Made by a program: the position numbers and the translations under genes. The notes beneath the pieces are model-generated. The model was not told the DNA's origin, did no database searches, and worked only from the letters and a program-made list of their open reading frames with translations. DNA of 40,000 nt, from contig JAFXKI010000003.1 in assembly GCA_017531845.1 (NCBI GenBank), forward strand, positions 160,354-200,353, written 5' to 3'. Of the stretch, positions 20,031 through 35,613 are shown one piece after another (positions within the stretch are counted from its first letter, which is position 1; each line of letters begins with the position of its first letter). The DNA is from Opitutales bacterium (GTDB lineage: Bacteria > Verrucomicrobiota > Verrucomicrobiia > Opitutales > UBA953).

Positions 20031-20624
20031 TTAAAAAAGGATGTTTTTGATTTTCACCCAAAGTTTGGAGAGCCGGCTTTCGGCGACAGTCTTTTGCTCG
20101 GCGAGGAGTTTGCGGACGGCTTCGCGCGTTCCCGCGTCGTTTTGCGCGGCTTTGAGGAGCGCCGTAATATCTTTTTCCGTAAGTTTCTGTCCGGTTGCGA
20201 CCGCCATGCGTGCGGCTTGCAAGACATCCGCAACGCCGGAGACAACGGAGTCGAGCGTGAGTTTCGTCGCGTTCACCTTGCGGGATTTGTAAACGCCCCA
20301 AAGCAGGAGCAATCCGGAGGAAACGGCTCCGATGATGCCGCCCTGGGCTTTGCCGACGGCGAGCGCGCTCTCGACGGTCGCTTCCGTTGCGGCGGAAAGC
20401 TCCGTTTGCGTTTCGACGGCGGAAGCCGGCACTTCGGTTTGCGTTCCCGTAGCGGGATCGGTGGCGAGGTATTTCGTCGAGCCGTCTTCTGCGGGAACGC
20501 CCGTTACGGCGACTTTTTCGCCGGAGGCACTTTGCGTGTAGGCGATTTTTTCGCAGGCGGTGAAGGCAAAGCTCGCGAACAATGCGAGAACAAACAGGAG
20601 GATGTTGGTGATTAGGTTTTTCAT
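20031..20624 (-). CDS. Hypothetical lipoprotein with an additional internal TM segment (spanin-like topology is speculative)
   Basis: The ATG at 20624 gives MKNLITNILLFVLALFASFAFTAC (lipobox). A Thr/Ala/Glu-rich linker follows, then a TM segment GGIIGAVSSGLLLLWGVY and a helical C-terminal tail. The track start 20732 adds a non-hydrophobic extension and is rejected. Confidence 0.6.
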   Translation of the reverse strand: MKNLITNILLFVLALFASFAFTACEKIAYTQSASGEKVAVTGVPAEDGSTKYLATDPATGTQTEVPASAVETQTELSAATEATVESALAVGKAQGGIIGAVSSGLLLLWGVYKSRKVNATKLTLDSVVSGVADVLQAARMAVATGQKLTEKDITALLKAAQNDAGTREAVRKLLAEQKTVAESRLSKLWVKIKNILF

Positions 20625-20734
20625 AAAGGGAAGAATGGGCGGAATGGGAGCACACACCGCCCGGACACGCATGCCCGAGCGGCGGTTTTCACCCTCAAAC
20701 AAAACGACGATTGCGTCTCTCTCAAAAAGCATGC

Positions 20735-20762
20735 GCCCGGTTTAGCGAATGCTAAACCGGGC
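20735..20762 (-). terminator. Perfect 12-bp hairpin, possible second terminator or 5' UTR element
   Basis: GCCCGGTTTAGC, loop GAAT, GCTAAACCGGGC. On the minus strand a T5 run follows after 6 nt. Confidence 0.4.
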
Positions 20763-20852
20763 GTCTAAAAATGCGGCGGAAACCGCGCTTGCGGCGGGGA
20801 AAATGAGATTAAAGGTTAAAGATTAGAGTTTAGAGGTGAACGCGAGGGGGCA

Positions 20853-20884
20853 CAAAAAAGCCGCCGTCGGATTCCGACGGCGGC
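20853..20884 (-). terminator. Intrinsic terminator closing the low-GC minus-strand cassette
   Basis: Stem GCCGCCGTCGG/CCGACGGCGGC (20860-20870 with 20874-20884), preceded on the plus strand by A6, which gives a T6 run on the minus strand. It lies 8 nt after the stop at 20892. Confidence 0.75.
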
Positions 20885-20891
20885 GGGACGT

Positions 20892-21149
20892 TTATCTGTT
20901 CAATGTGGAGATATTAAACTCCGAAAAGCAAGCGTTTATCGAACTTTCTGCCCTGGTTAAGAAAAAGTTTATTTTCCCTGCGATTTCATCGTCTCCGGGG
21001 CGAAACTTCTCATCAGCTAAACGCCTGTATTCGAGAACTTGCGCCTTTGCTGAGTCAACCCCGTTCAAAGAACTTAGATGTTTTTTTCTAAACGACGGAT
21101 CTCCAAGATCCCAGCACCATTTTCGGATTTTTTCGTATAAATCTTTCAT
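20892..21149 (-). CDS. Hypothetical 85-aa protein (last gene of the low-GC cassette)
   Basis: ORF only; no recognisable motif. Followed directly by a strong terminator. Confidence 0.45.
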   Translation of the reverse strand: MKDLYEKIRKWCWDLGDPSFRKKHLSSLNGVDSAKAQVLEYRRLADEKFRPGDDEIAGKINFFLTRAESSINACFSEFNISTLNR

Positions 21150-21277
21150 AAAAAAAAACTATCTTCGGACCATGAAGCCTCCCCGATTCGTTCCTTCGGA
21201 AAAGCCGGACACCTGCTCCTTGTCGGTAATCCTTCCCCTAAACAGGGCACTACCGCAGATGCTTATATCATGCCAAT

Positions 21278-21727
21278 TTATTCTTCCGTTGCATTTCGAG
21301 TTAAGTTGTAGACGCAATATGTTAAAAAAATAATCAAGGTAAGCGAAATCAACGTTGAGGAAAGCAAGATGTTAACAAGCCACGGGAGCGGATATGCAAC
21401 AATTGCAATTGATGCACAAAACACAACCGCAAGCCACATCAACGTAAGGACATGGGTAAAAACGAGGTCGTCAAAACTCCCTCGCTTTTTGTAGTGCTCA
21501 AAATAGGCTCGCCCTCCGAGTGTGAATAAAAATGTGGCGATTGTCGCCAAGAATCCGGCAACCGTAAACGCAAATCCGGATAAAATGGACGAGAGTTCTC
21601 CGGTGTGCGCACAAAATTTCTCCAACAACGGCGCAGAGAAATTACAGCTTAGAATCCCGAAGCAAATGCCCCCAAGCGCTAATGTTGCCAAAACGTGACA
21701 AACTCGAAATATCAGCGTTTCCGTCAT
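21278..21727 (-). CDS. Hypothetical integral membrane protein, about 4 TM helices
   Basis: Four hydrophobic segments: VCHVLATLALGGICFGILS, LSSILSGFAFTVAGFLATIATFLFTL, VFTHVLTLMWLAVVFCASIAIVAY, LVNILLSSTLISLTLIIFLTYCVY. A GGGAGAAAG Shine-Dalgarno-like element sits 5 nt before the ATG. An in-frame TGA lies 15 nt upstream, so this is a separate gene. Confidence 0.65.
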   Translation of the reverse strand: MTETLIFRVCHVLATLALGGICFGILSCNFSAPLLEKFCAHTGELSSILSGFAFTVAGFLATIATFLFTLGGRAYFEHYKKRGSFDDLVFTHVLTLMWLAVVFCASIAIVAYPLPWLVNILLSSTLISLTLIIFLTYCVYNLTRNATEE

Positions 21728-22598
21728 AAAATGCTTTCTCCCTCATCTCTTCAACGCGATCGTTTAGTTGTGCATTTCCGTTAAAGTGGTCGTAAATTTT
21801 TGAAATAATCTCCGACTCCTTCCCCGTGCCGATATCTTCGGTAAATTTACAGTCCCTATCAATTAAATAATCTGCCAACGCGTCTTCTGCAGAAGTACGA
21901 GCACGAACCATCAATTTGTCTCGTCCGTCCCCTTCGGAAGCCGTTTCCAACTGTTTATATACATCACCGATATCCCGCTTCCTTTTGGCACTCAATGTTA
22001 CACAAATATTGTCTATCTTGTCTTTGTCTTTTTCCCTTCCCAAAAGGTTTATAACCCGATTAAAAAGCGGATTTCCTTGCTTTACACGTACTGAAGTGCT
22101 TGCGATTTGTGCCATTGCCTGCGCCTGGGCACTTGTCGTTAACGACCCGACGGACTGTAAAAAAAGAACCCACTTCTTCACTCGGAGTTTCTTTTGGATA
22201 AGCTCGTTCAAAAATTTCTCAAGCGCAGACATACTTGGTCCGCGAAGAGTCGATGCAATTGCAATTACGTCTTCCGACACTGCAAAGTATGAAGCAAATC
22301 CGGCGGTTTCATTTTCCCTTAACCGCTTTTCGATTTCGACAAAAGAAAGCGTCTTCATGTCTACAGCTTTTATAAGCTCTTGAGAGCGCGTCGCGACAAG
22401 CGTGTAAACATTAGGCTTCCCGGTCTCGGACAAGAAAATTGTTTCCCCGTCTCTCCCTTCAAGCCCTTTGGAAAAATCTTTTTCCGAAATACTGACGAAG
22501 TTTTTCAAGATGGGACGCAAATCGCAACACACACGCGGAGGATTTTCCGAACGGGATTTTCGGTTTTTGAAGTAGTAATGGTAGTAGCTGAGTTTCAT
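21642..22598 (-). CDS. Hypothetical 318-aa protein, no recognisable domain
   Basis: Long low-GC ORF on the same strand as its neighbours. Its 3' end overlaps the next gene by 86 nt in another frame. I recognise no known motif. Confidence 0.6.
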   Translation of the reverse strand: MKLSYYHYYFKNRKSRSENPPRVCCDLRPILKNFVSISEKDFSKGLEGRDGETIFLSETGKPNVYTLVATRSQELIKAVDMKTLSFVEIEKRLRENETAGFASYFAVSEDVIAIASTLRGPSMSALEKFLNELIQKKLRVKKWVLFLQSVGSLTTSAQAQAMAQIASTSVRVKQGNPLFNRVINLLGREKDKDKIDNICVTLSAKRKRDIGDVYKQLETASEGDGRDKLMVRARTSAEDALADYLIDRDCKFTEDIGTGKESEIISKIYDHFNGNAQLNDRVEEMREKAFYDGNADISSLSRFGNISAWGHLLRDSKL

Positions 22599-22720
22599 TG
22601 TTTCTTTAGCGGACGATAAAAGGGATTGTGCCGTTTACGCGGCGGATTGGCGGGAGAAGGAGAGACTTTCGAGTGGGGCGGAAACTGTTGTTACCCTCAA
22701 AATCTTTCATTAAGGAGGAT

Positions 22721-23815
22721 TTACCCTTCAGCTGAGTACATTTTGACAGCATTCCGGAGCTTGTCCGCCAATTTGAAAATATCCGTGAGCTTTGAGATTG
22801 CGCATCGGTCCTCCGTACGTGCCTTGTCAACGAAAATGACCTCATGTCGCTTGGTGTTGAACAGGAGTCGGCAAATCGGTTTCCGGTTGTTGTCGTCGAG
22901 AAGAATTGCGCAGTAGCTTTTTGCGTCGCGCATAACGACTCGTTCCGGATCAATATCTTGGGCAAGGATTGCACAAATATATTGATAGGCAGTAACTTCT
23001 TCTTCTGTCGTCACAACTCCGTCTGATTCGGCACCCAAGGGTTCCGGAGCTTGCTCTTGCGGGGGCAAAGAGGTCGTTGACGTATTTTCCTGTGCAGGAG
23101 CGGTGCCGTCTATGGCATTTTGAAGACGCTCGTTTACGCGCCCGGAAACCCATTCGCGAAATGCCTCTCCGACAATCTGCGTAAATTGGATCAGTCGCTG
23201 TTGGTTGAGTACGCCGGAAAAGACTCTTTTTGCGAAAAGTTTTACGAAATCTTCCGATGGCTCCGAATACTCCGCAGAAAGCAGCACTCTAATCTGCTTT
23301 TTGTACTTTAACTCAGATGCGTTGCTCAAAATGTTTTCCTCGTTATAGAGAGACTTCCCAAATTTCTTCAGCTCGTTGGCAATCTTTGTATCTACACGCT
23401 CCATTGAAAATTCAAAGAACGGTTTTTCGTCCATTTTGTTGGGAATCTCAATATCCGTGTAGAACTGATAATCAATCCCGTTTGTCAAAATCGCAAAACG
23501 TGCAGAGGTCGTCGAAAAATAACGGAAGAGTTGAGAAGCGTGATTTAAGTTTAGCTGCGTGCCGACAGACTTGCACTCAATCAAAATAGCCGGACGATCG
23601 CTACGCATGATTACGTAATCCACCTTCTCGTTTTTCTTGGTGCCTACGTCTGCCGTAAATTCGGGAACCACTTCTGAGGGGTCAAACACATCATACCCGA
23701 GTGCCTGAATAACAGGCATGATCAGTGCGTTTTTTGTCGCCTCTTCGGTCTGAAGCATTTCACGAATCTTGGGGATTCTGTTCGCTATTTGAGAAAGTGA
23801 GTCAATTAGATCCAT
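22721..23815 (-). CDS. HsdR_N-type PD-(D/E)xK nuclease-fold protein (type I restriction enzyme R N-terminal-domain-like), 364 aa
   Basis: The N-terminal block TEEATKNALIMPVIQALGYDV...PEF....KVDYVIM....PAILIECK carries a D...E-x-K core, typical of HSDR_N_2-type proteins. The C-terminal half is a conserved-looking unknown domain. Confidence 0.7.
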   Translation of the reverse strand: MDLIDSLSQIANRIPKIREMLQTEEATKNALIMPVIQALGYDVFDPSEVVPEFTADVGTKKNEKVDYVIMRSDRPAILIECKSVGTQLNLNHASQLFRYFSTTSARFAILTNGIDYQFYTDIEIPNKMDEKPFFEFSMERVDTKIANELKKFGKSLYNEENILSNASELKYKKQIRVLLSAEYSEPSEDFVKLFAKRVFSGVLNQQRLIQFTQIVGEAFREWVSGRVNERLQNAIDGTAPAQENTSTTSLPPQEQAPEPLGAESDGVVTTEEEVTAYQYICAILAQDIDPERVVMRDAKSYCAILLDDNNRKPICRLLFNTKRHEVIFVDKARTEDRCAISKLTDIFKLADKLRNAVKMYSAEG

Positions 23816-23843
23816 ACGCGTTATTTTTTAAGGTTAAATTCTT

Positions 23844-24254
23844 TTAGTCGGAGGTCTTTCGGAAAATGTTCGTTACCGTGGATTTTTTCTGTAAGACAGG
23901 AACAAGGTTCCCGTCTTCCGTGATGCGGGCGTTGCGGAGAGGTGTCATACCCAAATTACCGGATTTTGCATATTTTTTAGCGCTCTTCTCCGCGTTTTTA
24001 GAAATTTTAGAGCGCGCTTTCGCCAGCTGATTAAGTGCTTTTGCTCGACCTTTCTCAGTCGACATGTCAAAGCGAGCCCCGCGCCCTCCTATGTATTTCT
24101 GAGGGTTTAAGTTCGTCCCAAAATCTCGATTCAATTTCTCGATAAAGGCAATGCGAATAAACGCCGACAATTCTTTACGAGACAAGAACTTGTCTGCCTC
24201 ATAAAGAACCTCCTCTTGTAGGGTGCATCCTATCATTTTCGACGTTTTCGCCAT
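23844..24254 (-). CDS. Putative ribbon-helix-helix (CopG-like) DNA-binding protein with a basic C-terminal tail
   Basis: From the ATG at 24254: MAKTSKMIGCTLQEEVLYEADKFLSRKELSAFIRIAFIEKLNRDFG fits a beta-strand, helix, helix RHH layout. Start choice is uncertain; the ORF is open to 24338, with alternative ATGs at 24236 and 24296. Confidence 0.5.
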   Translation of the reverse strand: MAKTSKMIGCTLQEEVLYEADKFLSRKELSAFIRIAFIEKLNRDFGTNLNPQKYIGGRGARFDMSTEKGRAKALNQLAKARSKISKNAEKSAKKYAKSGNLGMTPLRNARITEDGNLVPVLQKKSTVTNIFRKTSD

Positions 24255-24333
24255 TGAAAGTATTCTCACACGGCAAAACGGAGAAGACAAAGACATTTTC
24301 AAAAGTAATTTAATTTTTTTTGAAAAATACATT

Positions 24334-24380
24334 GACAAACTAATTTGTCTATTTTTAATAAACTAACAAATTAATTTGTT
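24334..24380. promoter_or_regulatory. Divergent promoter region with two related palindromic operator-like sites
   Basis: GACAAACTAATTTGTC (24334-24349; imperfect palindrome, one mismatched central pair) and AACAAATTAATTTGTT (24365-24380; perfect 16-bp palindrome) share ACAAAnTAATTTGT. TTGACA at 24332-24337 is a consensus -35 for the plus-strand operon. Confidence 0.6.
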
Positions 24381-24398
24381 AAAAAAAAAGAAACATTT

Positions 24399-24749
24399 AT
24401 GAAACACGAATTAAAGAAACATCACGATGCGACCCACCGAGCCGGAGAATTTTTCCCGCAAGGGAAAGCGAAAGAAAACGAGAAGTCGCGGCCTCCTGCA
24501 GATGATGAGTCCACGCGGCTTTTCCGCGAAGCGCTCAAAACGCTCAAGGTATCGGAGCGGAAAGCGCTTCTTGAAAACGCCGCAGTCATTGACGGCTGCT
24601 TGAAGAACGAAATTGAGCACGACGGCAAAGGCTTCCGCCGGAAACGGGGCTATACACTCTTTGTCGAAATCTACGAACCGGTTCCGAAAGAAGCCTTGAG
24701 GGACTTTTTCGGGAGGCTCATCCCCGCCGTGGGCAACGCCAAACACTAA
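24399..24749 (+). CDS. Hypothetical 116-aa protein directly upstream of cas1
   Basis: The ORF ends 12 nt before the cas1 start, on the same strand. No Cas4-type Cys cluster or other motif recognised. Confidence 0.5.
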   Translation: MKHELKKHHDATHRAGEFFPQGKAKENEKSRPPADDESTRLFREALKTLKVSERKALLENAAVIDGCLKNEIEHDGKGFRRKRGYTLFVEIYEPVPKEALRDFFGRLIPAVGNAKH

Positions 24750-24761
24750 CATCTAAACCGG

Positions 24762-25834
24762 ATGAAAACAGAATTAGAAATCGTGAAAGAGGGGTACCGT
24801 GCGGACGTGGCAGAAACGCTTGCCGCGATCGGAGGGAAACTGACGGGCGGGATGCTTGCGGAGCAGGACGGCGAAAGCGTCGACGTCCGCCTCGACGGAA
24901 AATCGATCGGGCGCGTTCCCCTCATCAACCTCGAAGGTATCGTTACACTCGGTTGGGACATTGCCTGTTCGCCGTCGCTCTTAGGCGCGTGCGCCCAGCG
25001 CGGTATCGTTTGAATCCGCACGGAAAATTTCTCGCCGCCGTTCACGGCTATCCGCACGGGAACGTCTTACTGCGCCGCAAACAACATCGTGTCGCGGACA
25101 ATCCGGCGGCATCGCTCGCCATCGCCCGCCGTTGCATTCAAGCAAAATTCGCCAATTGCCGCACGCTTTTGCGCCGCGCGGCACGCGAAGCTAAAGTGCC
25201 GGAAATCGCGGAAAAGCTCGGGCTCTGCGCCGACATTCATCACAACCGGATTGCGGAAACTTCACGTGCACAAAATGCCGATATGCTTCGCGGGATCGAA
25301 GGCGACACCGCCGCGCATTACTTTCGGTTTTTTAACGATTTAATTATTTCTCCCGACGGAAAGATGCGTTTAAACGGGCGTTCCCGCCGGCCGCCGCGCG
25401 ATCCCGTCAACGCGATTTTGAGTTTTCTTTATACTTTGCTCGCACACGATTGCCGTTCCGCGTGCGTTGCCGCAGGGCTCGATCCGCAAATCGGATTTTA
25501 TCACGCAGATCGCCCGGGACGCCCGGGCTTGGCGTTGGATTTAATGGAGGAATTTCGTCCGGTTTTTGCGGATCGCGTTGCGCTTTCGCTCATCAATCGC
25601 CGCCAGCTAAATTCCAAAGATTTTCAGTTCTTTGAAAACGGCGCGGTTTTGCTTTCCGAAGATGCACGAAAAACGCTTCTTCAAGTTTGGCAAGAACGTA
25701 AACGCGAAGAAATTACACATCCGGTTCTGGAGGAAAAAATGCCGCTCGGCTTAGTTCCGCTGATGCAAGCGCGATTGCTCGCGCGCCATCTGCGCGGCGA
25801 TTTTGACTGCTATCTCCCGTTTCTTTGGAAGTAA
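24762..25834 (+). pseudogene. cas1: Type I-C-like Cas1, interrupted by a single-nucleotide frameshift near 25008-25011
   Basis: Frame A (24762-25013) ends ...GRVPLINLEGIVTLGWDIACSPSLLGACAQRGIV then TGA. Frame B continues LNPHGKFLAAVHGYPHGNVLLRRKQHRVADNP...GRSRRPPRDPVNAILSFLYTLL...FYHADRPGRPGLALDLMEEFRP...LPFLWK, collinear with I-C Cas1 (e.g. B. halodurans). One extra T in the run at 25009-25011 would restore the frame. This could be real decay or a homopolymer sequencing error. Confidence 0.85.
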
Positions 25835-25839
25835 AAGCC

Positions 25840-26130
25840 ATGTTTGTTTTGGTTGCTTACGATGTTTCGACCTCGACGCCGGCGGGAACGCGGCGACTTT
25901 CCCGTATTGCGAAAATTTGTAAAAACTTCGGGCAGCGCGTCCAAAATTCAGTCTTCGAATGCCGTGTCGATCCCGCGCAATGGGTTTCCCTGAAGGCACA
26001 GCTTCTGCGCGAATATTCGGCCAAAGAAGATTCGTTGCGCTTTTATTTTTTAAGAAACAACTGGGATCGCCGCGTCGAACACCACGGGAACAATCCCGGC
26101 TTCAACCCCACCCAAGACATTATTTTGTAA
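25840..26130 (+). CDS. cas2: CRISPR-associated endoribonuclease Cas2
   Basis: MFVLVAYDVSTSTPAGTRRLSRIAKICKNFGQRVQNSVFEC...LRFYFL is a typical Cas2. The ATG lies 5 nt after the cas1 stop. Confidence 0.85.
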   Translation: MFVLVAYDVSTSTPAGTRRLSRIAKICKNFGQRVQNSVFECRVDPAQWVSLKAQLLREYSAKEDSLRFYFLRNNWDRRVEHHGNNPGFNPTQDIIL

Positions 26131-28748: not shown

Positions 28749-29800
28749 TCAGGGAGCTAATTCCGTGTCAGCTCCGCTCAAGCTCAAAAGATCGATGCGC
28801 TCCCGCGAAACAAGAATATTGTTTTCGACAAAAAGCCGAACAAGTTGTTTGCCGTTTATGAGAGAAATCGGACTACTTCTTTTCGGGTCTTCAGCTTCCG
28901 AACGCGCCCCCTCGAAAAATCACTTGTCGTGATAATCAACCCTCGCTCATCTGTAGCGAGGCTTCCGCGAACGCCTTGGACGACCGGAGCCTGAACGTTT
29001 TTCTTCCAGCGCTTAACCTGCACCGCCATTTTTATACTGACTCCGTCCGTTATCACCCACGTCCCGCGCACATCAATTCCGCCGTCGCCACTGCTACGAG
29101 TAACTTCCATTTCTTCAAATCCCATCGCGACAAGAAGTTCTCCTATTAACTCCTCAAAACGCACAGGAGACATGCTCATCAGAACTTTATGTAATTTCTC
29201 AAGTATAGACGCATTGTGCTTTTCGACTTGAGCTCGAAGCCCCCTGTCATTCTCAACCCCTCGATTCAAATCTACAAGCCCTCTGCCGAGCTGAACAAAT
29301 CGGGAGAAGTTCCCTTGACGTTGTTTCCGACGAATCTCCGTAAGAATCTGTGCATACATCGTTGCTTCCGGAGTTTGCCCGCTTGATTTAAGCCAACCTT
29401 GCCGCAATGCTGCATTCGTAATATCCCGGTAATGCATCGGTTTTCCGCCGCCAAATGTTTCAAGTACCTTTTGCGCACAATCCGTAAAAGAGTATGTTTT
29501 CTCCTTGTTACGTTTAATCCGCCCGGGATTATTCATGATCGGATGCGAGTTTGATGCCGACGGACCACATGCAAACCTCTTGGGATTCGCTCCGACCGCC
29601 ACAACTCCCGACTGAGGATTTTTCGACAAAACGTAAAGCCTTGCGCCGAGTGTCGCGACAGGTGTTTTACCGAAGGATTTTAGCTTCTTATCTAGTCCAA
29701 GACGGCATCCTTCCGCCCAAATTTGAGACACGGACATCGGCTCTTGAGCATCCGAAAGAACCATTTTCGCAAAATCGACAAAGGATATTTTTGAGGTCAT
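28749..29800 (-). pseudogene. mrr: Mrr-like restriction endonuclease (two N-terminal HARE/Mrr_N winged-helix domains plus an Mrr_cat domain) with a frameshift near the 3' end
   Basis: Catalytic region ELIGELLVAMGFEEMEVTRSSGDGGIDVRG...MAVQVKRW...GLIITTSDFS. After SDFS the annotated frame gives RGRVRKLKTRKEVVRFLS then a stop at 28856. The adjacent frame reads EGARSEAEDPKRSSPISLINGKQLVRLFVENNILV..., the canonical Mrr C-terminus, and runs to 28749. The shift falls in the C5/A5 runs at 28907-28919. The start is taken at the ATG at 29800. Confidence 0.78.
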
Positions 29801-29801
29801 A

Positions 29802-29836
29802 GGCGGGAACGTTGGAAAAACGCTAACGTTCCCGCC
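29802..29836 (-). promoter_or_regulatory. 12-bp inverted repeat immediately 5' of the mrr start codon
   Basis: GGCGGGAACGTT (29802-29813) pairs with AACGTTCCCGCC (29825-29836), with an 11-nt loop. On the mRNA the hairpin would end 1 nt before the ATG. It is built from the CGGGAACG word. Confidence 0.5.
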
Positions 29837-29953
29837 CAACAAAATCAATCTTTGCCTCAAAAAAACGCCCTTTAAAAATCCTTAATACTTCGAAAAAATC
29901 CCCCGGACAACTCACGCCTTTCCCGGAATACTCTGTCGGTAAAATTTCCTCCG

Positions 29954-30430
29954 ATGAGTCCACGAAAAAATCCTTACAAAAAACAAGCCTGCGTTCCCGC
30001 CGCCGTCAAAGATCGCTGGATTCCCGCAAATTCCGCAAAGGCAAAATCCTTTCTCCCTAAACTGAATCTGCACTCCCTCAACGTTCCCGCAGTGCAAAAA
30101 GCCGTCCTTTCCCACTGGGCACAAACCCTGGGAACGCCTTTCGCAAAGCCGTTTGAGTCAGCCGCGCTCGAAATTCTCGAAAGGGGAAAAGCGACCGACG
30201 AATCCGTATCCGAAGCTCCGCCACAAATCCTTTTTCCGGAACTCTTCGATGTCCCGTTTCCGCCGCCGAAAAAACCGAAATTCACCTTCATTGACCTTTT
30301 CGCCGGAATCGGCGGTTTCCGCATCGCCATGCAAAACCTCGGCGGCAAATGCGTTTTCTCCTCCGAGTGGGATTCCCAAGCCTCAAAAACATACGAAAGC
30401 AACTACGGCGAAATCCCCTTCAGTGATAAT
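29954..30430 (+). pseudogene. 5' fragment of a DNA (cytosine-5) methyltransferase gene (motifs I-II only)
   Basis: Motif I FTFIDLFAGIGGFRIA and the following CVFSSEWDSQASKTYESNYGEIPF are typical Dcm-type blocks. Similarity ends at about 30425, where GC content drops. No PCQ (motif IV), ENV or later motifs appear anywhere downstream. Confidence 0.75.
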
Positions 30431-30500
30431 CTTCGTAAGCCGTTGTTATTTACGCATAGTTCGTGTCCACACCCCAAAACAGTTGACGTATCAAAAACAA

Positions 30501-31145
30501 ATGTTCATCTCTAATGTCGCGCTTATGAAAAATACCAATCCACAAATACGACAGAAAATGAAGAATTTCTCCCAAACAATGTATGTTGCAATGTTTGCTC
30601 TAAGCATAATGAGAAAGAATCTTCCGAAAGAACAAATTAAACAGAAAGAACTATCTACCTCTATCCTCTCACTGCTGGAAAACTCCTCATCTATAATTCC
30701 CGAAGCATTAATGCCGCCCAAAAAAATGGGGCCAGAATCGATAACGCTTAACAGCGAAAACCCCATAGAAGTTTATAACCTCGCAGTGCAGAAGATTTTA
30801 GAGCTACTCGTCGTTGGACAAACAACATTACTCGAAGAGTGCCTTAATATAAGGTTTCCAGACATTAAAGAGGAAAAGTTGTTCAATAAAATGAAAATGT
30901 TGTCGTTCCCCCAAAATACAAAAGAATCTTGGTCTATAGAGGTGGTTTCTGCCCTACGCATTATGCGAAACAGCATTATTCACAACGACGGCATATGGGA
31001 CAAAGAGCCATTCCCTCAGGATAAAAAAACGCTGAAAGGCACCCCAATCAAATTAACATTTGATGACATATTCCGCTTTCGAAGAGCCGTGCGAACATAT
31101 GTAAACACAGTAATTCTAAAATCGAATTCTTCTACATCCCAATAA
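30501..31145 (+). CDS. Hypothetical protein with a HEPN-type Rx4H motif (putative RNase/abortive-infection-like)
   Basis: The low-GC ORF contains SALRIMRNSIIHNDG (R-N-S-I-I-H fits Rx4-6H) in a predicted all-helical context. Start at the ATG at 30501 or 30525. The track's upstream extension to 30153 is an alternative frame of the dcm fragment. Confidence 0.5.
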   Translation: MFISNVALMKNTNPQIRQKMKNFSQTMYVAMFALSIMRKNLPKEQIKQKELSTSILSLLENSSSIIPEALMPPKKMGPESITLNSENPIEVYNLAVQKILELLVVGQTTLLEECLNIRFPDIKEEKLFNKMKMLSFPQNTKESWSIEVVSALRIMRNSIIHNDGIWDKEPFPQDKKTLKGTPIKLTFDDIFRFRRAVRTYVNTVILKSNSSTSQ

Positions 31146-31458
31146 ACAACCACCTTCTGACATTCGCCCTAAAAAAATAAAGGTGCATCATAACTCATTA
31201 AATTCATCCTAATCTAAAGATTTAACCATCAAGCCATTTACAAACAAAAATTGACGTATTTGATTCACGTACTTTAATTTCAAATAGCATTCATTTCCTC
31301 TTTTTTGAAAATTGCCTCAAAACATAGTTCCACTGACACTCGATTTCCTTCCCTCTCTACAAAGTTCGCCGAATAAATCATTTACTAACGAAACGCCCCA
31401 CACTCCTGTATTGTGAGAATAATAACAGCCACCAATAAACATCGAAATCAATGCTATT

Positions 31459-32292
31459 ATGAATTGGATAATTAAAATTATTTTTTTCTTTAGTCCGAAG
31501 ATCCTTTCCGCAACCATGGTATTATTGCTTATTGTTTCTTGGATATTCCCCCGCGCATGCTCTGACCAAACCTATGCCACTTATTGTTCGATGTCAGATC
31601 CAGACAGGAGATTCGCTATGGCAATCCTTGAAAACTGTCAGGACAATTTAACTCTATTCATATCCATTGCCACGCTAATCTTTACCGGAATTGCCATCTT
31701 TGTTGCGTGCAGAATTAACGAATCGGTGCAAGCGGCAGAATGCACTAAGATTTATTTCTCCAAGAAGATGTTGAAATCGATACGAGTTCTTTTTGGATTA
31801 CGAGATAAACTTGATAAGCGAATAGGATTTGAAAATCCCAACACTAAACTGACAACCAGAAAACCTGAAAACAATTCAAAAAAACTCTTCGTTTTACACG
31901 GTGATGTGAAATCTTACCCGTGGACCGAAGAGGAGGACTGTGCACGTCGGATTGTGAAATCTTACTTCCAGCTCATCTACGAGCTTCGGCACAAAAGAAT
32001 CATCCCTATTAGCAAATACATGCTTGGGCGCTTATGCGATGTTGATGCTCTCCCCCTTTATTTTGAAGTCATAGAGCCCATGGAAAAAATTCTCAACAAT
32101 GGCTATAACACCGAACCCTTCTACTGCTTGATGAAAGATGTAAAGAACATTTACAACAAGAAAAGACAGCAAACCGCAAAAGTAGAACGTAAAAACCAAA
32201 AATTCCTCACCCAAGCCTCTGCGGATTTCATTGATTGGAAATCAAGTCAATCCATGGGCACTACTCCGAATACCCGGGGAACCGAGTCTTGA
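31459..32292 (+). CDS. Hypothetical membrane protein (2 N-terminal TM segments plus a soluble domain), 277 aa
   Basis: Hydrophobic segments MVLLLIVSWIF and LTLFISIATLIFTGIAIFVAC. No recognised domain. The start is uncertain (an alternative ATG lies at 31516). Confidence 0.5.
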   Translation: MNWIIKIIFFFSPKILSATMVLLLIVSWIFPRACSDQTYATYCSMSDPDRRFAMAILENCQDNLTLFISIATLIFTGIAIFVACRINESVQAAECTKIYFSKKMLKSIRVLFGLRDKLDKRIGFENPNTKLTTRKPENNSKKLFVLHGDVKSYPWTEEEDCARRIVKSYFQLIYELRHKRIIPISKYMLGRLCDVDALPLYFEVIEPMEKILNNGYNTEPFYCLMKDVKNIYNKKRQQTAKVERKNQKFLTQASADFIDWKSSQSMGTTPNTRGTES

Positions 32293-33673
32293 TGTATTCT
32301 TCTGCCTTTTTGTAGGGAACGTGCTTTGTTGCTCCGCCGAGTCGGAGGTAAAATTCCTTAAATTCATCCGGACTTAAAGTCTTTTTCCATGTTTTAGTTT
32401 CGGGCTCCTTACAAATGAAAATCGGGGTACTCGACTCTTGAATCGAAATCACAAAATAGTCTTTTTTCCCTGATTTTTCAGGAGTCAGTCTAAAAAGCAC
32501 ACCCGCGACAGCACGATTTTTAAACATACACTCAATCCGTTCCCGTAGGCGTATTGCGTATTTGTCCCAACGTTCCATCCCCTTTAACTTGTCCAAGCCC
32601 TCCGCTGCAAAGTCCCGCCCTAGACCGACAATTTTTCCCGAGTTATTTATTCCGACAAAAATTTTCCCGCCTGCATTATTTGCCATTCCCGCAATGGATT
32701 TTGCTAAAATCCATGCCTGAGAAATTGGATTCAATTCTTTAAGACGTTCAATATTGGTCCTATCTGCCTCTGTCTGTTCTTCTCCTTTACTTTCCAAAAA
32801 TTCTATAATTTTGGTATTCTTTGCTGCAGAAACGCCGGAGGCTTTAAACTCCACCGCATCCCCCTCCATCCCAAATTCGCTTGTTTTGTTATTATCATTC
32901 TCGTTTGATTTTTCCGCAGTCTGTTTATGCGCATTGTGCTCCTGCTTGACCTTTCCGCCTAAAATCTGGCATACCTGCTGAGAATTATTTTTTTCAGCAA
33001 GTTGTTTGGCTGTAAATCCGTCTTTTGTTTTTGCGTTTCTGTTCGCACCCAAATCCAACAACAACCGAACAATTCCTGCATGATTAAACCATGCTGCAAC
33101 ATGCAACGGAGTCCATCCCTTTTCCGTGCGCGCACCCAAAAGCCACTCGTCATCATCAAGTTCCTCTTCAACCGCATCTACGTCGCCCAACTTCACAGCC
33201 TTGTGCACTCCAGAAAACTTTGTCTCCACCTGCACGTCATTTTGCCCTCGCCGACTTTCTTTTCCCTTTTTCGCTCTCACAGAAAATCGTCCTCCGCCAC
33301 TCTTTAAAATCTCCAATACATCTCCATTTTTCCCAAGCACCGCCAAATCCGCCGGAGTATTCCCGTATTTGTCTTTCGCATTTACACACGCACCATAATC
33401 AAGCAACATCCGGACAACTCCTTTGGAATTTCCAATCACGGCAACATGCAACGCCGTCAAACCTAGTACACGTTCGCGTTGGAACGCCAAAGACTCGTCA
33501 TCATCAAGCTCTTCCTCGACAAATATAGAATCCCCGCAAATCGCACCGCAAAAGAATAAATTCCACGTCTTGCTTGTTTTTTCTAATTTCTCTCGCCACA
33601 CGTTCAGTCCGTGATTATTCTCCAAGATATTCAAAAATTTCTGTATTTTTTCACACTGCGACTTTCTGTTCAT
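32261..33673 (-). CDS. Ankyrin-repeat protein fused to a C-terminal AlbA_2 (Schlafen-like, divergent-AAA/DNA-binding) domain, 470 aa
   Basis: Two ankyrin blocks (GLTALHVAVIGNSKGVVRMLLDYGACVNAKDKYGNTPADLA; GWTPLHVAAWFNHAGIVRLLLDLGANRNAKTKDGFTAKQLA). The C-terminal ILAKSIAGMANNAGGKIFVGINNSGKIVGL ... YFVISIQESSTPIF ... FYLRLGGATKHV matches the AlbA_2 pattern (AfaNtxGGxlxiGvxdxGxivG). Confidence 0.72.
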   Translation of the reverse strand: MNRKSQCEKIQKFLNILENNHGLNVWREKLEKTSKTWNLFFCGAICGDSIFVEEELDDDESLAFQRERVLGLTALHVAVIGNSKGVVRMLLDYGACVNAKDKYGNTPADLAVLGKNGDVLEILKSGGGRFSVRAKKGKESRRGQNDVQVETKFSGVHKAVKLGDVDAVEEELDDDEWLLGARTEKGWTPLHVAAWFNHAGIVRLLLDLGANRNAKTKDGFTAKQLAEKNNSQQVCQILGGKVKQEHNAHKQTAEKSNENDNNKTSEFGMEGDAVEFKASGVSAAKNTKIIEFLESKGEEQTEADRTNIERLKELNPISQAWILAKSIAGMANNAGGKIFVGINNSGKIVGLGRDFAAEGLDKLKGMERWDKYAIRLRERIECMFKNRAVAGVLFRLTPEKSGKKDYFVISIQESSTPIFICKEPETKTWKKTLSPDEFKEFYLRLGGATKHVPYKKAEEYIKTRFPGYSE

Positions 33674-33759
33674 GCTTCATCAGTCTAGAAAAGAATACTC
33701 TGTCATGCCAAAACTTTTCTACTTGCAAAATTAATTCTAAAGGAAAGATAATCCCGAGC

Positions 33760-34020
33760 ATGCCTCGATACGAATACAAAATTTTAAGGATAGATGCTAA
33801 ATCCAGGCATCCATCCTGTAATTCAACGGTTCAATCATCCACAATTGATATATCTCTAACGGAGGCGCTTCTCTCCAAAGAGGGACGTGACGGCTGGAAG
33901 CTTAAGGGGTGCTACCCAGAACCTGCCGGTGGGGCGTGTGGCGGCCTTCTTCTATCCGTCTGCTTTGTTTTCGAACGTCGCATTATTGAAAGAAAATCCT
34001 ACTATGGCGACGACGATTAA
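33760..34020 (+). CDS. Small hypothetical protein, DUF4177-like
   Basis: MPRYEYKILRID...EGRDGWKLKGCYPE...FVFERR resembles the (M)YEYKvv...GWELv...fKR layout of DUF4177 (from memory). The track's upstream extension from 33574 looks non-coding. Confidence 0.4.
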   Translation: MPRYEYKILRIDAKSRHPSCNSTVQSSTIDISLTEALLSKEGRDGWKLKGCYPEPAGGACGGLLLSVCFVFERRIIERKSYYGDDD

Positions 34021-34040
34021 CCCCATTTTCATAAAACAAA

Positions 34041-34076
34041 AACAATAGAGCCGCTTCTAAAAGCGGCTCTATTGTT
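34041..34076. terminator. Bidirectional terminator between convergent genes
   Basis: Perfect 16-bp stem AACAATAGAGCCGCTT/AAGCGGCTCTATTGTT with loop CTAA, flanked by A-rich and T-rich runs. It abuts the purA-like stop at 34078. Confidence 0.8.
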
Positions 34077-34077
34077 T

Positions 34078-35613
34078 TTACCCCAGCTTGATCAGTTCTT
34101 CCGTGGCGGGGATGTCTTTGATGATTTGGGAGGGGAGCGGGCCGACGCCGATGTAGCGGAGGTTCGGGAGCGCGGGAGCGTCGGCAAGTTCGACGATGGT
34201 CTTCATCACGAACGCGATGTAGCGTTTGGCGTTCTCGGGAAGGTCGTTAAACGAGCGCACGCCGGAAATGTCTTCCGTCCAGCCCGGGAGCGTTTCGTAG
34301 ACGGGGACGAGCGTCTGGCGCAGCGCGTCGTTGCGCGGCACGTGTTTGTAAATTTTTCCGTCCGGTCCCTTGTAGGCTACGCATACGAGCAAGTCGCCGC
34401 CCTGCCATTCGTCGGCGGGCGAAAGCGCATCGAGCTTGTTGATGACCAAATCCTGATAACCGCCGTAGCGGAGCGCGTCGGCTTTTTCCACGCAGTCGCA
34501 CCAGCCGACCATGCGCTGACGCCCGGAAACGACACCGAATTCGAGTTTTTTCAGGCGTTTGCAAAGCGGATGCTCGTCGTCCATTTGCGTAAGGAAAACG
34601 TGCGTGCCGACCTTGGTATCGTAAGCCTTGCAGCAGCCCATCGTGTGCACGGGCTGCGCGGGAATGCCGGCGGATTGGAAAAATTCCGGAGTAAAGGTGT
34701 GCGAAGCGGTAACGTTCGGCGGGAAGCCGTGGCGTTTGTCGAGCCAATAAGCCTGCCCGAATTCGCCGATGATGTATTCACCGCGCTTCATCGTATCGAG
34801 CACGAGATCGCGCACATCGCAAATCGCGGGAACAAGCTCCTGCCCTGCGTTCCAGTAAACTTCGATCACTTTTTCGCGGTTAAACTTAAACGGCGTTCCC
34901 GCGTCGAATTGCGTGAAGTCGAAATCGGCTTCGGTGAAAATGCCGTCTTTAATGGCGGGCGCGTTCCCGCGCACTTCGGCGGCGGTGAGTTTTTTGAAAA
35001 ATTCGCTCCAAAGCTCCGGCGCCACGCGGCAAACGTGCTCAATCGTGCGCTCGGCGCGGTCCATGCGCGCGTTCATTTTTTCTTCGAAAACTTCCTTCGG
35101 TCCGAGGAAATCCGCGTAGGTAATTTGCCATTGTCCTACTTCGTCGCAATATGCGGGCGTGATTCCGCGCCCCGTGGAGCCGCGCGGCAGGTGCTTCAAG
35201 ACGTTCACGCGGTAATCCTCAAACGCGAGGTCGAGCATGCGGTGCGAAACGTCGCTGAGCATCGTGCGCTCGTCGATGCGCAGGCGCGAATAAATCGGGA
35301 TGTCCATCTTTTCGAGCGGGCGCGCTTCCCAGTGGAATTTGCGCGGATCGGCAACGACACCGGCACCGATGGCAAGCACGGCAACATCCTTTTCGATCAC
35401 GCCCGCAGGAAGCAGGTTGAGCTTGAGCCCGCCGACGGTGTGCCCGGAATTGGCGCCGCCGTTCACTTTCATAACGACGGAAACGATCCCGCGCTTGCCG
35501 GTTTCGGCTTGAAGCTCGCGAATGACTTCGGGAATGAGGCGTCCCTTGCCTTCGTCTCCGGTGCTGATTCCGGTGTCTGCAATGAGTTGGCTGCAAAAAG
35601 AAATGAGTGCCAT
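34078..35613 (-). CDS. purA: Adenylosuccinate synthetase family protein, unusually long (511 aa)
   Basis: PurA blocks GDEGKG (P-loop), [20 protein letters not shown]. The 536-aa plus-strand ORF 34072-35682 is its antisense shadow. Confidence 0.8.

Follow-up and report, generated by a model that had tools for sequence, protein, structure and literature searches.

The block at 20853-24398 of the window (the whole 40,000-nt stretch of Opitutales DNA analysed here) holds five co-oriented minus-strand genes, read in the order regulator, HsdR-N-type endonuclease, rexA, rexB and p85 and followed by an intrinsic terminator (Table 1). An earlier reading made from the letters alone (the sequence-only reading) had described the same layout, and our analysis recovers its five ORFs (products of 85, 149, 318 and 364 aa plus the regulator), its strong terminator, the twin palindromes in a divergent promoter region and the flanking mini-CRISPR and cas1-cas2 genes. 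The terminator stem and T6 tail occupy 20860-20884, and the terminator is also kept in the related locus L022, the closest divergent allele.

Table 1 Features of the rexAB operon and its surroundings (positions in the window).
Feature	Position	Strand	Basis
Mini-CRISPR, two type I-C repeats and one 33-nt spacer	19815-19912	-	array read
Swappable module: rexA from codon ~25, rexB, accessory slot	20803-22525	-	window vs sister genome L001
Intrinsic terminator, operon end	20850-20884	-	11-pair stem (10 G-C), loop of 3, T6 tail
p85, orphan 85-aa ORF, last gene before terminator	20892-21149	-	ORF call
rexB homologue, 149 aa, 4 hydrophobic segments, predicted membrane effector	21278-21727	-	PADLOC, PHROG, hhalign
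rexA homologue, 318 aa, predicted cytoplasmic DNA-binding sensor	21642-22598	-	Pfam, PADLOC, PHROG, PDB, Foldseek
Standalone HsdR-N-type PD-(D/E)xK endonuclease-family protein, 364 aa	22721-23815	-	Pfam, PHROG
Small regulator, 136 aa from ATG at 24254, first operon gene	23844-24254	-	position, homologue in L022/L023
Two 16-bp palindromes, putative operators	24334-24349 and 24365-24380	.	centres 31 bp apart
p116, divergent gene just upstream of cas1, cro-like position	24399-24749	+	ORF; L001 homologue
Type I-C cas1 (pseudogene) and cas2	24762-26130	+	PADLOC Cas1c 4e-117, Cas2c 1e-39

The divergent intergenic region that holds both palindromes (AACAAATTAATTTGTT at 24365-24380 and GACAAATTAGTTTGTC at 24334-24349) has a GC content of 13%. 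The motif ACAAATTARTTTGT matches only these two palindromes in the window, and one of the two shares bases with a sigma-70-like minus-strand site (24351-24324). The composition of the block is foreign: its GC content is 44.1% (41-46% for its genes) versus 51-54% in flanking DNA, a contrast that the sequence-only reading, with 32-38% against 60% or more, had overstated. That reading had also found the block free of an otherwise ubiquitous host word, and indeed the block falls within the longest gap (20492-25057, 4565 nt) between copies of the 8-mer CGGGAACG/CGTTCCCG, which elsewhere recurs about every 400 nt (101 copies in 40 kb versus ~1.2 expected from base composition).

RexA and RexB homologues with a conserved gene overlap

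The 318-aa protein, previously thought to fit no family, is RexA by both sequence and fold. It matches Pfam RexA (PF15969) over residues 1-240 (E=6e-35; 121 bits versus a cutoff of 25), the PADLOC RexA model (1e-39) and the PHROG RexA-like family (1e-21); phmmer against the PDB retrieves lambda RexA (8TWQ, 2.9e-11), to which hhalign aligns the protein with a probability of 98.7%. A Foldseek search with the AF2 model, a check proposed in the sequence-only reading, returned 8twq_A/B as the sole significant matches (E=1.7e-13). The RexA subfamily of the window has 18 members. No relatives were found in IMG/VR and the GenBank phage collection gave two weak matches only (23-25% identical), so close relatives are so far confined to bacterial chromosomal and metagenome contigs.

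The 4-TM protein, likewise placed outside named systems before, is identified by sequence comparison as a RexB homologue, the predicted membrane effector. It matches the PADLOC RexB model (3.7e-10), PHROG RexB-like (0.003) and Pfam RexB (18.5 bits, under the gathering threshold of 27). An hhalign comparison of five of its homologues with lambda RexB yields a probability of 87% (E=4e-6, 131 columns), and its hydropathy peaks lie at positions equivalent to those of lambda RexB.

As noted from the letters, the rexB start is embedded in the 3' end of rexA, 86 nt inside it and in the +1 frame. Homologues of the two proteins co-occur: in 11 of 11 independent loci, from Opitutales, Blastocatellia and metagenome lineages, they are adjacent, with the rexB start 77-104 nt within rexA. 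Because the overlap is conserved, the two genes are probably coupled in translation, which would fix the RexA:RexB ratio, known to matter in lambda.

Since both proteins are homologous to RexA and RexB and lie behind a small regulator as in lambda, the cassette is a member of the long-known RexAB defence system and not a new system. The pair has been known since the 1950s and has models in PADLOC. The sequence-only reading had taken the combination for an uncharacterised one; its two central proteins instead belong to a described system. Its functional intuition, that a defence island here carries anti-phage genes in which a sensor in the cytoplasm is paired with a small membrane effector, was right. 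PADLOC models other than those matched, Kiwa included, gave no hit.

Nuclease, regulator and small accessory genes

Residues 24-123 of the 364-aa protein match Pfam HSDR_N (4e-15) and HSDR_N_2 (5e-13), and phrog_4225 'endonuclease' covers its full length (1.8e-120), in agreement with the HsdR_N-type nuclease fold assigned earlier. The AF2 model has a pLDDT of 85, and its PDB matches are REase-like but weak. The family counts at least 8000 homologues, in which D66, E80 and K82 are invariant; relatives are solitary among housekeeping genes (Akkermansia core genomes), and in the temperate phages IPP25 and Juicebox the phrog_4225 nuclease directly follows the repressor. The protein is without HsdR motor domains, is mostly found away from Rex and has no counterpart in L022. 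The nuclease is an independent single-gene function inserted between regulator and rexA and no Rex component.

The regulator has no match in Pfam, PADLOC, PHROG, NCBIfam or the PDB, with no HTH or LexA-family hit; the RHH fold given in the sequence-only reading is suspected but found no confirmation. Its position is equivalent to that of lambda cI, and a homologue 35-38% identical directly precedes rexA in L022 and L023, behind a different palindrome. Regulator and palindromes probably autoregulate the operon. p85 has no family match in Pfam, PADLOC, PHROG or NCBIfam and no true relatives among 1.84 billion representative proteins. Outside the window's own allele it occurs solely in L022 and L023, beside a rexAB allele of 85% identity, where the encoded protein is 89% identical (codon differences: 6 synonymous, 9 non-synonymous); it is absent from L001, and an 86-aa gene of L004 is not homologous to it. 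We regard p85 as an add-on specific to this lineage, and whether it is coding is uncertain. The divergent p116, also without family match in these four collections, has an 81%-identical counterpart in L001; its N-terminus varies.

Allele exchange in a decaying defence island

The DNA of the sister genome L001 is ~98-100% identical to the window on both sides of a variable stretch, between 24380 and 22526 and at 20791 and below. Within this stretch, identity is 40-65% across rexA and rexB, and the accessory genes are without homology. L001 carries a rexA/rexB allele 54%/42% identical to that of the window, followed by a SocA/Panacea-domain gene and lacking p85, next to a nuclease that is 99% identical. 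The regulator-nuclease-rexA order recurs in L001 and L024-L028; in L022 and L023 the regulator is followed directly by rexA, rexB and p85, without the nuclease.

A Mrr-type REase, a C5-MTase fragment and an Ank-Schlafen protein lie close to the block. The adjoining cas1 is split into 83 and 274 aa by a 10-bp deletion at ~25008, found in at least five independent assemblies; in L001 the gene is intact (360 aa). This pseudogene indicates that the island is decaying. The window has no effector cas genes, the L001 counterpart of the mini-CRISPR is a solo repeat, and an exact match to the mini-CRISPR spacer is absent from IMG/VR.

Relation to known Rex systems and proposed function

As in lambda (cI-rexA-rexB), rexA and then rexB, the latter encoding a protein of ~145 aa with four hydrophobic segments, lie downstream of a regulator; operator-like palindromes, a divergently transcribed gene and a closing terminator complete the likeness. 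The window differs from lambda in that identity is only ~20-25%, RexA has a C-terminal extension (318 versus 279 aa), rexB starts inside rexA rather than after a 15-nt gap, the regulator is small and non-CI, and a nuclease gene intervenes. The operon sits on an Opitutales chromosome, within a defence island in which no prophage is recognisable, and close relatives of this rexAB often lie within type I R-M operons.

RexABpp of Pseudomonas putida prophage P1 (PP_5643/PP_5644; Sci Rep 2026) similarly pairs a RexA-like DNA binder with a 4-TM RexB-like effector. In the part of that report on which we draw (PMC12894663), a CI-like repressor precedes rexAB with two extra genes between them, a separation resembling that in the window, and membrane damage by RexBpp is stimulated by RexApp. 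The same part places the pair within an identifiable 55-kb prophage, mentions no gene overlap and describes RexApp as found by HHpred and structure only, whereas the window's protein matches Pfam RexA directly. Actinobacteriophages (Sbash gp30/31, CarolAnn gp44, Toast gp42; PMC11077077, PMC6426596) express RexA/RexB-like pairs from prophages. The genes have a CI-like immunity repressor, a Cro-like factor and operators as neighbours, and the RexA homologues are non-specific DNA binders (PMC11077077). These systems differ in RexA length (337-372 aa), in their actinobacterial hosts and in lying in complete phages.

We consider it likely that the block is a repressor-led operon defined by an abortive-infection (phage-exclusion) pair of the RexAB type. 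Going by the homologous RexAB of lambda and P. putida, RexA would be a dimeric cytoplasmic protein that binds DNA non-specifically and, once intermediates of phage replication or recombination trigger it, would activate the 4-TM RexB. RexB may then depolarise or permeabilise the membrane, upon which the infected cell would stop growing and leave the phage cycle uncompleted. We infer exclusion, depolarisation and DNA binding from homologues 20-25% identical. Because the architecture is like that of the immunity region in temperate phages (PRM-cI-rexA-rexB-tIMM in lambda), the block would most likely be an immunity or moron module that a prophage left in the chromosomal defence island and that has been domesticated. 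Its surroundings show neither an integrase nor att sites nor phage structural genes, so it is the architecture that points to a prophage origin, the only other link being a p233-like lipoprotein beside rexAB in the Mu-like locus L004.

Alternative interpretations

The sequence-only reading had treated all five genes as one new integrated system, in which the nuclease would act as sensor or effector with the 318-aa protein, the membrane protein and p85. Co-orientation, tight spacing, a common promoter region and terminator, intact catalytic residues and the recurrent regulator-nuclease-rexA order are consistent with this, but the existence of nuclease-free loci, the near-identity of the L001 nuclease beside a replaced rexAB and a lost p85, the disparity between a nuclease family of thousands and a RexA subfamily of 18, the lack of p85 relatives and the sufficiency of RexA and RexB as a named system make it very improbable. 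The idea that this RexAB subfamily is coupled to HsdR-N-type nucleases, as a second-line Abi that fires on restriction inhibition or DNA ends with the 364-aa protein as local partner, is somewhat better placed, though still unlikely. PrrC, an anticodon nuclease unrelated to Rex, is coupled to EcoprrI in this way (hsd locus; reference 25 of PMC12894663), and in 4 of 10 independent lineages (L003, L013, L016, L020) rexA-rexB occupies the corresponding slot of a type I R-M operon, with hsdS on one side and hsdR or an HSDR_N fragment on the other; five of the ten, including the window, have an HSDR_N-domain gene at most four genes from rexAB, and in L005 rexB adjoins a type II R-M system and a PDDEXK_4 nuclease. 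However, the sample is small and set against no background rate, unrelated defence genes generally land in type I R-M operons and defence islands (DarTG, Abi_C, Abi_2 and RhuM occupy the same gaps), and L015, L018 and L022 are without such a neighbour. The window itself lacks hsdM and hsdS, having only a standalone HSDR_N-domain protein without motor domains and mostly found without Rex.

We assign a comparably low probability to the cassette being the remnant of a prophage in decay that plays no current role in host defence, in which RexAB serves the element, for which it may modulate the lysis-lysogeny switch or stabilise antitoxins, or is neutral cargo. The fixed frameshift deletion in cas1, a CRISPR array down to one or two repeats, a frameshifted rexA in L005 and the SocA/Panacea-domain gene behind rexB in L001 would fit such decay or element-centred roles, as would the part that lambda RexA and RexB also play in the lysogenic-lytic transition (PMC11077077; see also bioRxiv 10.1101/2021.04.19.439022). 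Against this, at least 23 contigs, drawn from many samples, carry identical and intact copies of rexA and rexB, codon substitutions between alleles are biased towards synonymous changes (synonymous:non-synonymous 72:50 in rexA and 33:26 in rexB), and the start-codon overlap is kept across phyla. Whole rexAB alleles are exchanged between near-identical genomes, which is the pattern expected of diversifying, phage-driven selection.

Identification of the block's core proteins as RexA and RexB

The block at 20850-24400 comprises five ORFs, all on the minus strand, as the sequence-only reading had described them. Its 318-aa protein, declared unassignable in that reading, matches Pfam PF15969 over residues 1-240 (E=6e-35; 121 bits, cutoff 25), the PADLOC RexA model over 1-278 (1e-39) and the PHROG family "RexA-like exclusion protein" (1e-21). 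A direct phmmer comparison with 8TWQ, the crystal structure of lambda RexA, gives E=2.9e-11, and hhalign pairs the protein with lambda RexA at a probability of 98.7%. In an AF2 model built on 18 homologues (pLDDT 79.7), the sole significant matches in the PDB are 8twq_A/B (E=1.7e-13, probability 1.00, 303 columns). The TM-score of the model against 8twq is only 0.43-0.48, with a high rmsd, plausibly because the domains are oriented differently: RexA is described in an open and a closed state (PMC11077077). Sequence and predicted fold (a split globular domain plus a dimerisation domain, RdgC-like) together identify the protein as RexA. Its exact sequence is already deposited for an Opitutales MAG, annotated as hypothetical, and occurs on at least 23 contigs from many samples.

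The 149-aa protein matches PADLOC RexB (3.7e-10) and PHROG RexB-like (0.003); its Pfam RexB score, 18.5 bits, stays under the gathering cutoff (27). When five homologues are combined into a profile, hhalign matches it to lambda RexB over 131 of 144 residues (probability 87%, E=4e-6), and the four hydrophobic segments lie at positions equivalent to those in lambda RexB. Together these results assign the protein to RexB. The PADLOC scan of all cassette proteins, a check that the sequence-only reading had proposed, returns RexA, RexB and a weak MTase_I match only, placing both proteins in an already described system; it gives no match to Kiwa (KwaA 4-TM plus KwaB DUF4868), which had rightly been judged a poor fit. 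Of the proposed uncharacterised defence system, the defence assignment thus stands and the novelty does not, the core being a RexAB detectable by PADLOC. The locus adds no new system; what it adds is a divergent RexAB in an Opitutales genome, and we found no Rex system described for that phylum, Verrucomicrobiota. To our knowledge, RexAB is the oldest known abortive-infection system.

Features of the block and its surroundings
Feature	Position	Strand	Remark
Type I-C mini-array	19815-19912	-	two repeats, one 33-nt spacer CGGAGGCGCAAGAGTTTGACAGAGCTGTGATGT; left of block
p233	20031-20624	-	lipoprotein ORF beyond the terminator
Intrinsic terminator, 3' of p85	20860-20884	-	11-bp stem, 10 G-C pairs, T6 tail
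p85	20892-21149	-	ORF
rexB	21278-21727	-	ORF; 149 aa, four hydrophobic segments
rexA	21642-22598	-	ORF; 318 aa
Nuclease gene	22721-23815	-	ORF; 364 aa
Regulator gene	longest ORF from 24338; ATG 24254	-	by alignment; ATG 24254 matches the start of the homologue in L022, a contig with the closest divergent allele
Putative operator palindrome, 16 bp	24334-24349		GACAAATTAGTTTGTC; sequence reading
Putative operator palindrome, 16 bp	24365-24380		AACAAATTAATTTGTT; sequence reading
cas1	24762-25834	+	frameshifted; right of block
HARE-HTH + Mrr_cat restriction endonuclease	28856-29860	-	
C5 DNA methylase	29954-30514		truncated
Ankyrin-repeat + Schlafen/AlbA_2 protein	32261-33673	-	

Composition and boundaries of the block

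The block has 44.1% GC, compared with 51.1% for the window and 53-54% for neighbouring genes; its composition is foreign, though less so than first claimed, the GC figures of the sequence-only reading being wrong while the direction of the difference was right. The 8-mer CGGGAACG/CGTTCCCG occurs 101 times in the 40 kb (44 plus, 57 minus) against about 1.2 copies expected from base composition, and resembles a DNA-uptake sequence or a host word selected in some other way. The gap in this word noticed earlier is real: 20492-25057 (4565 nt), the longest interval free of it, spans the block, and absence of the word is a handy marker of foreign DNA. The flanks of the word show a weak G…C bias (GCGGGAACGC).

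The terminator and the palindromes that had been read from the sequence are both there. A strong terminator closes the operon, and twin palindromes are present in the 60-nt divergent intergenic region (13% GC); their motif has no further match in the window. A sigma-70 promoter scan finds sites no more numerous than in shuffled sequence.

A conserved rexA/rexB overlap

The start of the 4-TM ORF had been noted as embedded in the 3' end of the 318-aa gene, and it does lie 86 nt inside. We collected all reachable loci encoding relatives of the window RexA, and at every one of them rexB lies 3' of rexA on the same strand. In 11 of 11 independent loci (the window, L001, L003, L004, L005, L013, L015, L016, L018, L020 and L022), the first ATG of rexB is found 77-104 nt before the rexA stop in the +1 frame, and RexB read from this ATG has 145-150 aa. 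In the window, this ATG straddles two rexA codons, that of Tyr291, which is invariant in the family, and the next one (tATGac). In lambda, by contrast, rexA and rexB are 15 nt apart. The conserved overlap probably couples translation of rexB to that of rexA, fixing their ratio, a feature relevant to the control of RexA:RexB stoichiometry. rexB is left uncalled in many assemblies, among them L001, L021, L022-23 and L024-28; because the overlap makes gene callers skip it, metagenomic surveys of defence systems probably count too few RexAB pairs.

Between the window and the closest divergent allele (contigs L022/L023), synonymous and non-synonymous codon differences number 72 and 50 in rexA, and 33 and 26 in rexB, consistent with purifying selection on both genes.

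Allele exchange and changing partners

The sequence-only reading treated the five genes as one combination, which comparison with related loci does not bear out. In L022/L023, where RexA, RexB and p85 are 85%, 82.5% and 89% identical to those of the window, rexA comes straight after a homologue of the window's regulator (35-38% identical), and the nuclease gene is absent. In L001, a locus of a sister genome, p85 is lost, and a SocA/Panacea-domain gene occupies its place together with two further ORFs. The DNA of the window and L001 is about 98-100% identical from 24380 down to about 22526, a tract covering the regulator, the nuclease, the rexA leader and the first ~24 codons of rexA, and this level of identity resumes below about 20791. 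Between these flanks, rexA and rexB are 40-65% identical in DNA, and their proteins 54% and 42%, respectively. The swapped segment (window 20803-22525, L001 8074-10970) has its left breakpoint within the conserved 5' end of rexA. This swap between near-identical flanks indicates that all of rexA beyond codon ~25 behaves, together with rexB and the slot 3' of it, as an exchangeable module, and the alleles swapped in isogenic flanks could be used as natural chimeras for specificity mapping.

The 364-aa protein carries an HsdR-N-type PD-(D/E)xK domain at residues 24-123 (Pfam HSDR_N 4e-15, HSDR_N_2 5e-13), in agreement with the nuclease fold read from the sequence, and D66, E80 and K82 are invariant across its family. 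In the AF2 model (pLDDT 85), a long helical linker joins the nuclease domain to a C-terminal alpha/beta domain; its PDB matches are only weak and REase-like. Of the parts of a type I HsdR, the two Pfam domains are all that the protein shows. Lacking the ResIII/SWI2_SNF2 motor domains, which the genuine HsdR proteins of L003 and L016, two loci of other RexA relatives, do bear, it is not an HsdR. A reading as a truncated HsdR is rejected, the protein being a full-length member of a family of its own, phrog_4225 "endonuclease" (1.8e-120; family ~357 aa), with at least 8000 proteins at E≤1e-10 and relatives at 50-60% identity in Verrucomicrobiota, Planctomycetota and Chloroflexota. An 89%-identical homologue and an Akkermansia homologue are solitary among housekeeping genes. 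In the temperate phages Streptococcus IPP25 and Corynebacterium Juicebox, family members sit in the lysogeny module directly 3' of the repressor, and in a Porphyromonas phage one lies among morons, adjoining HicAB. The 364-aa nuclease is an independent gene, inserted between regulator and rexA.

p85 has no family match, and exhaustive phmmer of 1.84 billion representative proteins finds no relative, only one spurious repeat-protein match. The two alleles that carry the gene differ by 6 synonymous and 9 non-synonymous codons, leaving its coding status uncertain. The 86-aa ORF found after rexB in L004, a locus of another RexA relative, was considered as a p85 homologue and rejected, the two sharing no homology. 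The conserved rexB-p85 spacer was likewise rejected as an RNA element (fold z-score only -1.0; no Rfam match even at E≤1); its high identity to L022 is attributed to the recombination tract being more closely related there. Neither the nuclease nor p85 forms a single system with RexAB.

Immunity-region-like architecture and possible prophage origin

The regulator, a candidate RHH protein in the sequence-only reading, has no match in Pfam, NCBIfam, PHROG, PADLOC or the PDB by sequence and profile searches. Using hhalign, it aligns in register with a CopG sequence, but at an insignificant level (E=0.03, probability 1.6%), and gives no alignment with FitA-like RHH. Upstream of the L022 regulator lies a different inverted repeat, ACAAGTAATACA-N17-TGTATTACTTGT (L022 770-815, compared with window 24334-24380), in keeping with a co-variation of regulator and operator like that of heteroimmune phages.

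The order of elements, in which a regulator with operator-like palindromes and a divergent gene is followed by an extra gene, rexA, rexB and a terminator, is the layout of lambda PRM-cI-rexA-rexB. Several actinophage rex loci are laid out in this way (PMC11077077), and so is P. putida P1 RexAB, which has two extra genes between repressor and rexAB where the block has one (PMC12894663). The window RexAB is a variant in its long overlap, C-terminal RexA extension, non-CI regulator and modular allele exchange.

By homology, a RexA dimer, a non-specific DNA binder, would be triggered on phage infection and would activate RexB, which in turn would depolarise or permeabilise the membrane and arrest the infected cell. 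Membrane depolarisation by RexA-RexB is the classical lambda model, reportedly that of Parma et al. 1992 and Snyder & McWilliams 1989. Non-specific DNA binding and a DNA-dependent conformational change are described for the RexA dimer (PMC11077077), and membrane damage by RexBpp of P. putida has been demonstrated (PMC12894663).

A prophage origin of the RexAB operon is plausible. No prophage body is visible around the operon, and RexA relatives are found neither in IMG/VR viral contigs, which speaks against such an origin, nor in PLSDB plasmids; GTDB genomes contain one extra locus, JGI metagenomes three short loci, and GenBank phages just two weak matches, both enterobacterial. A prophage origin is favoured by p233, a lipoprotein of ~197 aa with lipobox FTAC and an internal TM segment, because a 43%-identical homologue adjoins rexAB just downstream (2116-2685) in L004, a Mu-like locus with a Mu Gp27-like gene. 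p233 may thus have come from a prophage, as an envelope or superinfection-exclusion protein that accompanies rexAB.

Restriction-modification context of RexAB relatives

Four of the ten independent lineages carry rexA-rexB within a type I R-M operon: hsdM-hsdS-rexA-rexB-darT-darG-hsdR (L003), …hsdS-rexA-rexB-62aa-rhuM-HSDR_N (L013), hsdM-hsdS'-91aa-rexA-rexB-hsdR (L016) and hsdM-hsdS-rexA-rexB-Abi_C-… (L020). DarTG, RhuM, Abi_C or Abi_2-like genes accompany rexAB in L003, L013/14, L016/17 and L020/21. L005 has a frameshifted rexA and then rexB, after which come a PDDEXK_4 nuclease and R-M genes of EcoO109I type; the rexAB neighbourhoods of L015 and L018 contain no R-M-type neighbours. A full-text literature search found no description of an association between RexAB and hsdS/hsdR, and this recurrent embedding is a useful natural feature of RexAB relatives.

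The embedding may merely reflect hsd operons serving as landing pads for defence genes, and a functional link between Rex and restriction has a low probability. The fullest form of such a link would make these loci a distinct, undescribed RexAB clade, with a RexA of 310-324 aa, a rexB ATG 77-104 nt inside rexA in an invariant Tyr codon, a preference for the hsdS-hsdR gap of type I R-M operons or for the vicinity of HsdR-N-type nucleases, exchange of rexA (C-terminal ~290 aa) plus rexB between near-identical genomes, and Rex wired to restriction, sensing restriction failure or restriction-generated DNA ends. We regard this combined proposal as quite unlikely; if true, the swapped segment would hold phage-specificity determinants.

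CRISPR-cas remnants and other island cargo

The mini-CRISPR and cas1-cas2 do flank the block, in opposite orientation and about 5 kb apart, with p116, cas1 and cas2 on the plus strand to its right. Relative to the intact 360-aa cas1 of L001, the window's cas1 lacks 10 bp at about 25008, a deletion that breaks it into 83 + 274 aa. At least five independent assemblies show the same split, so this is a genuine pseudogene, not a product of misassembly. L001 has the intact cas1 but only a solo repeat (11862-11891), whereas the window lineage has the broken cas1 and two repeats. Nothing in IMG/VR matches the spacer exactly, and none of cas3/5/8c/7/4 was found among the window ORFs scanned. The window thus lacks a complete type I-C CRISPR-Cas, the frameshifted cas1, cas2 and the two-repeat array being all that these ORFs and repeats offer.

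p116, the divergent gene, has no detectable family and is separated from cas1 by a 12-nt gap. Its N-terminal ~35 codons (24382-24501) are 65-80% identical to L001, within surroundings of 92-100%. The defence cargo of the right flank (28856-33673) is placed in a second stretch of low GC (41% over 30.5-34 kb), and CGGGAACG/CGTTCCCG is sparse in 30082-34894 (GC 0.41).
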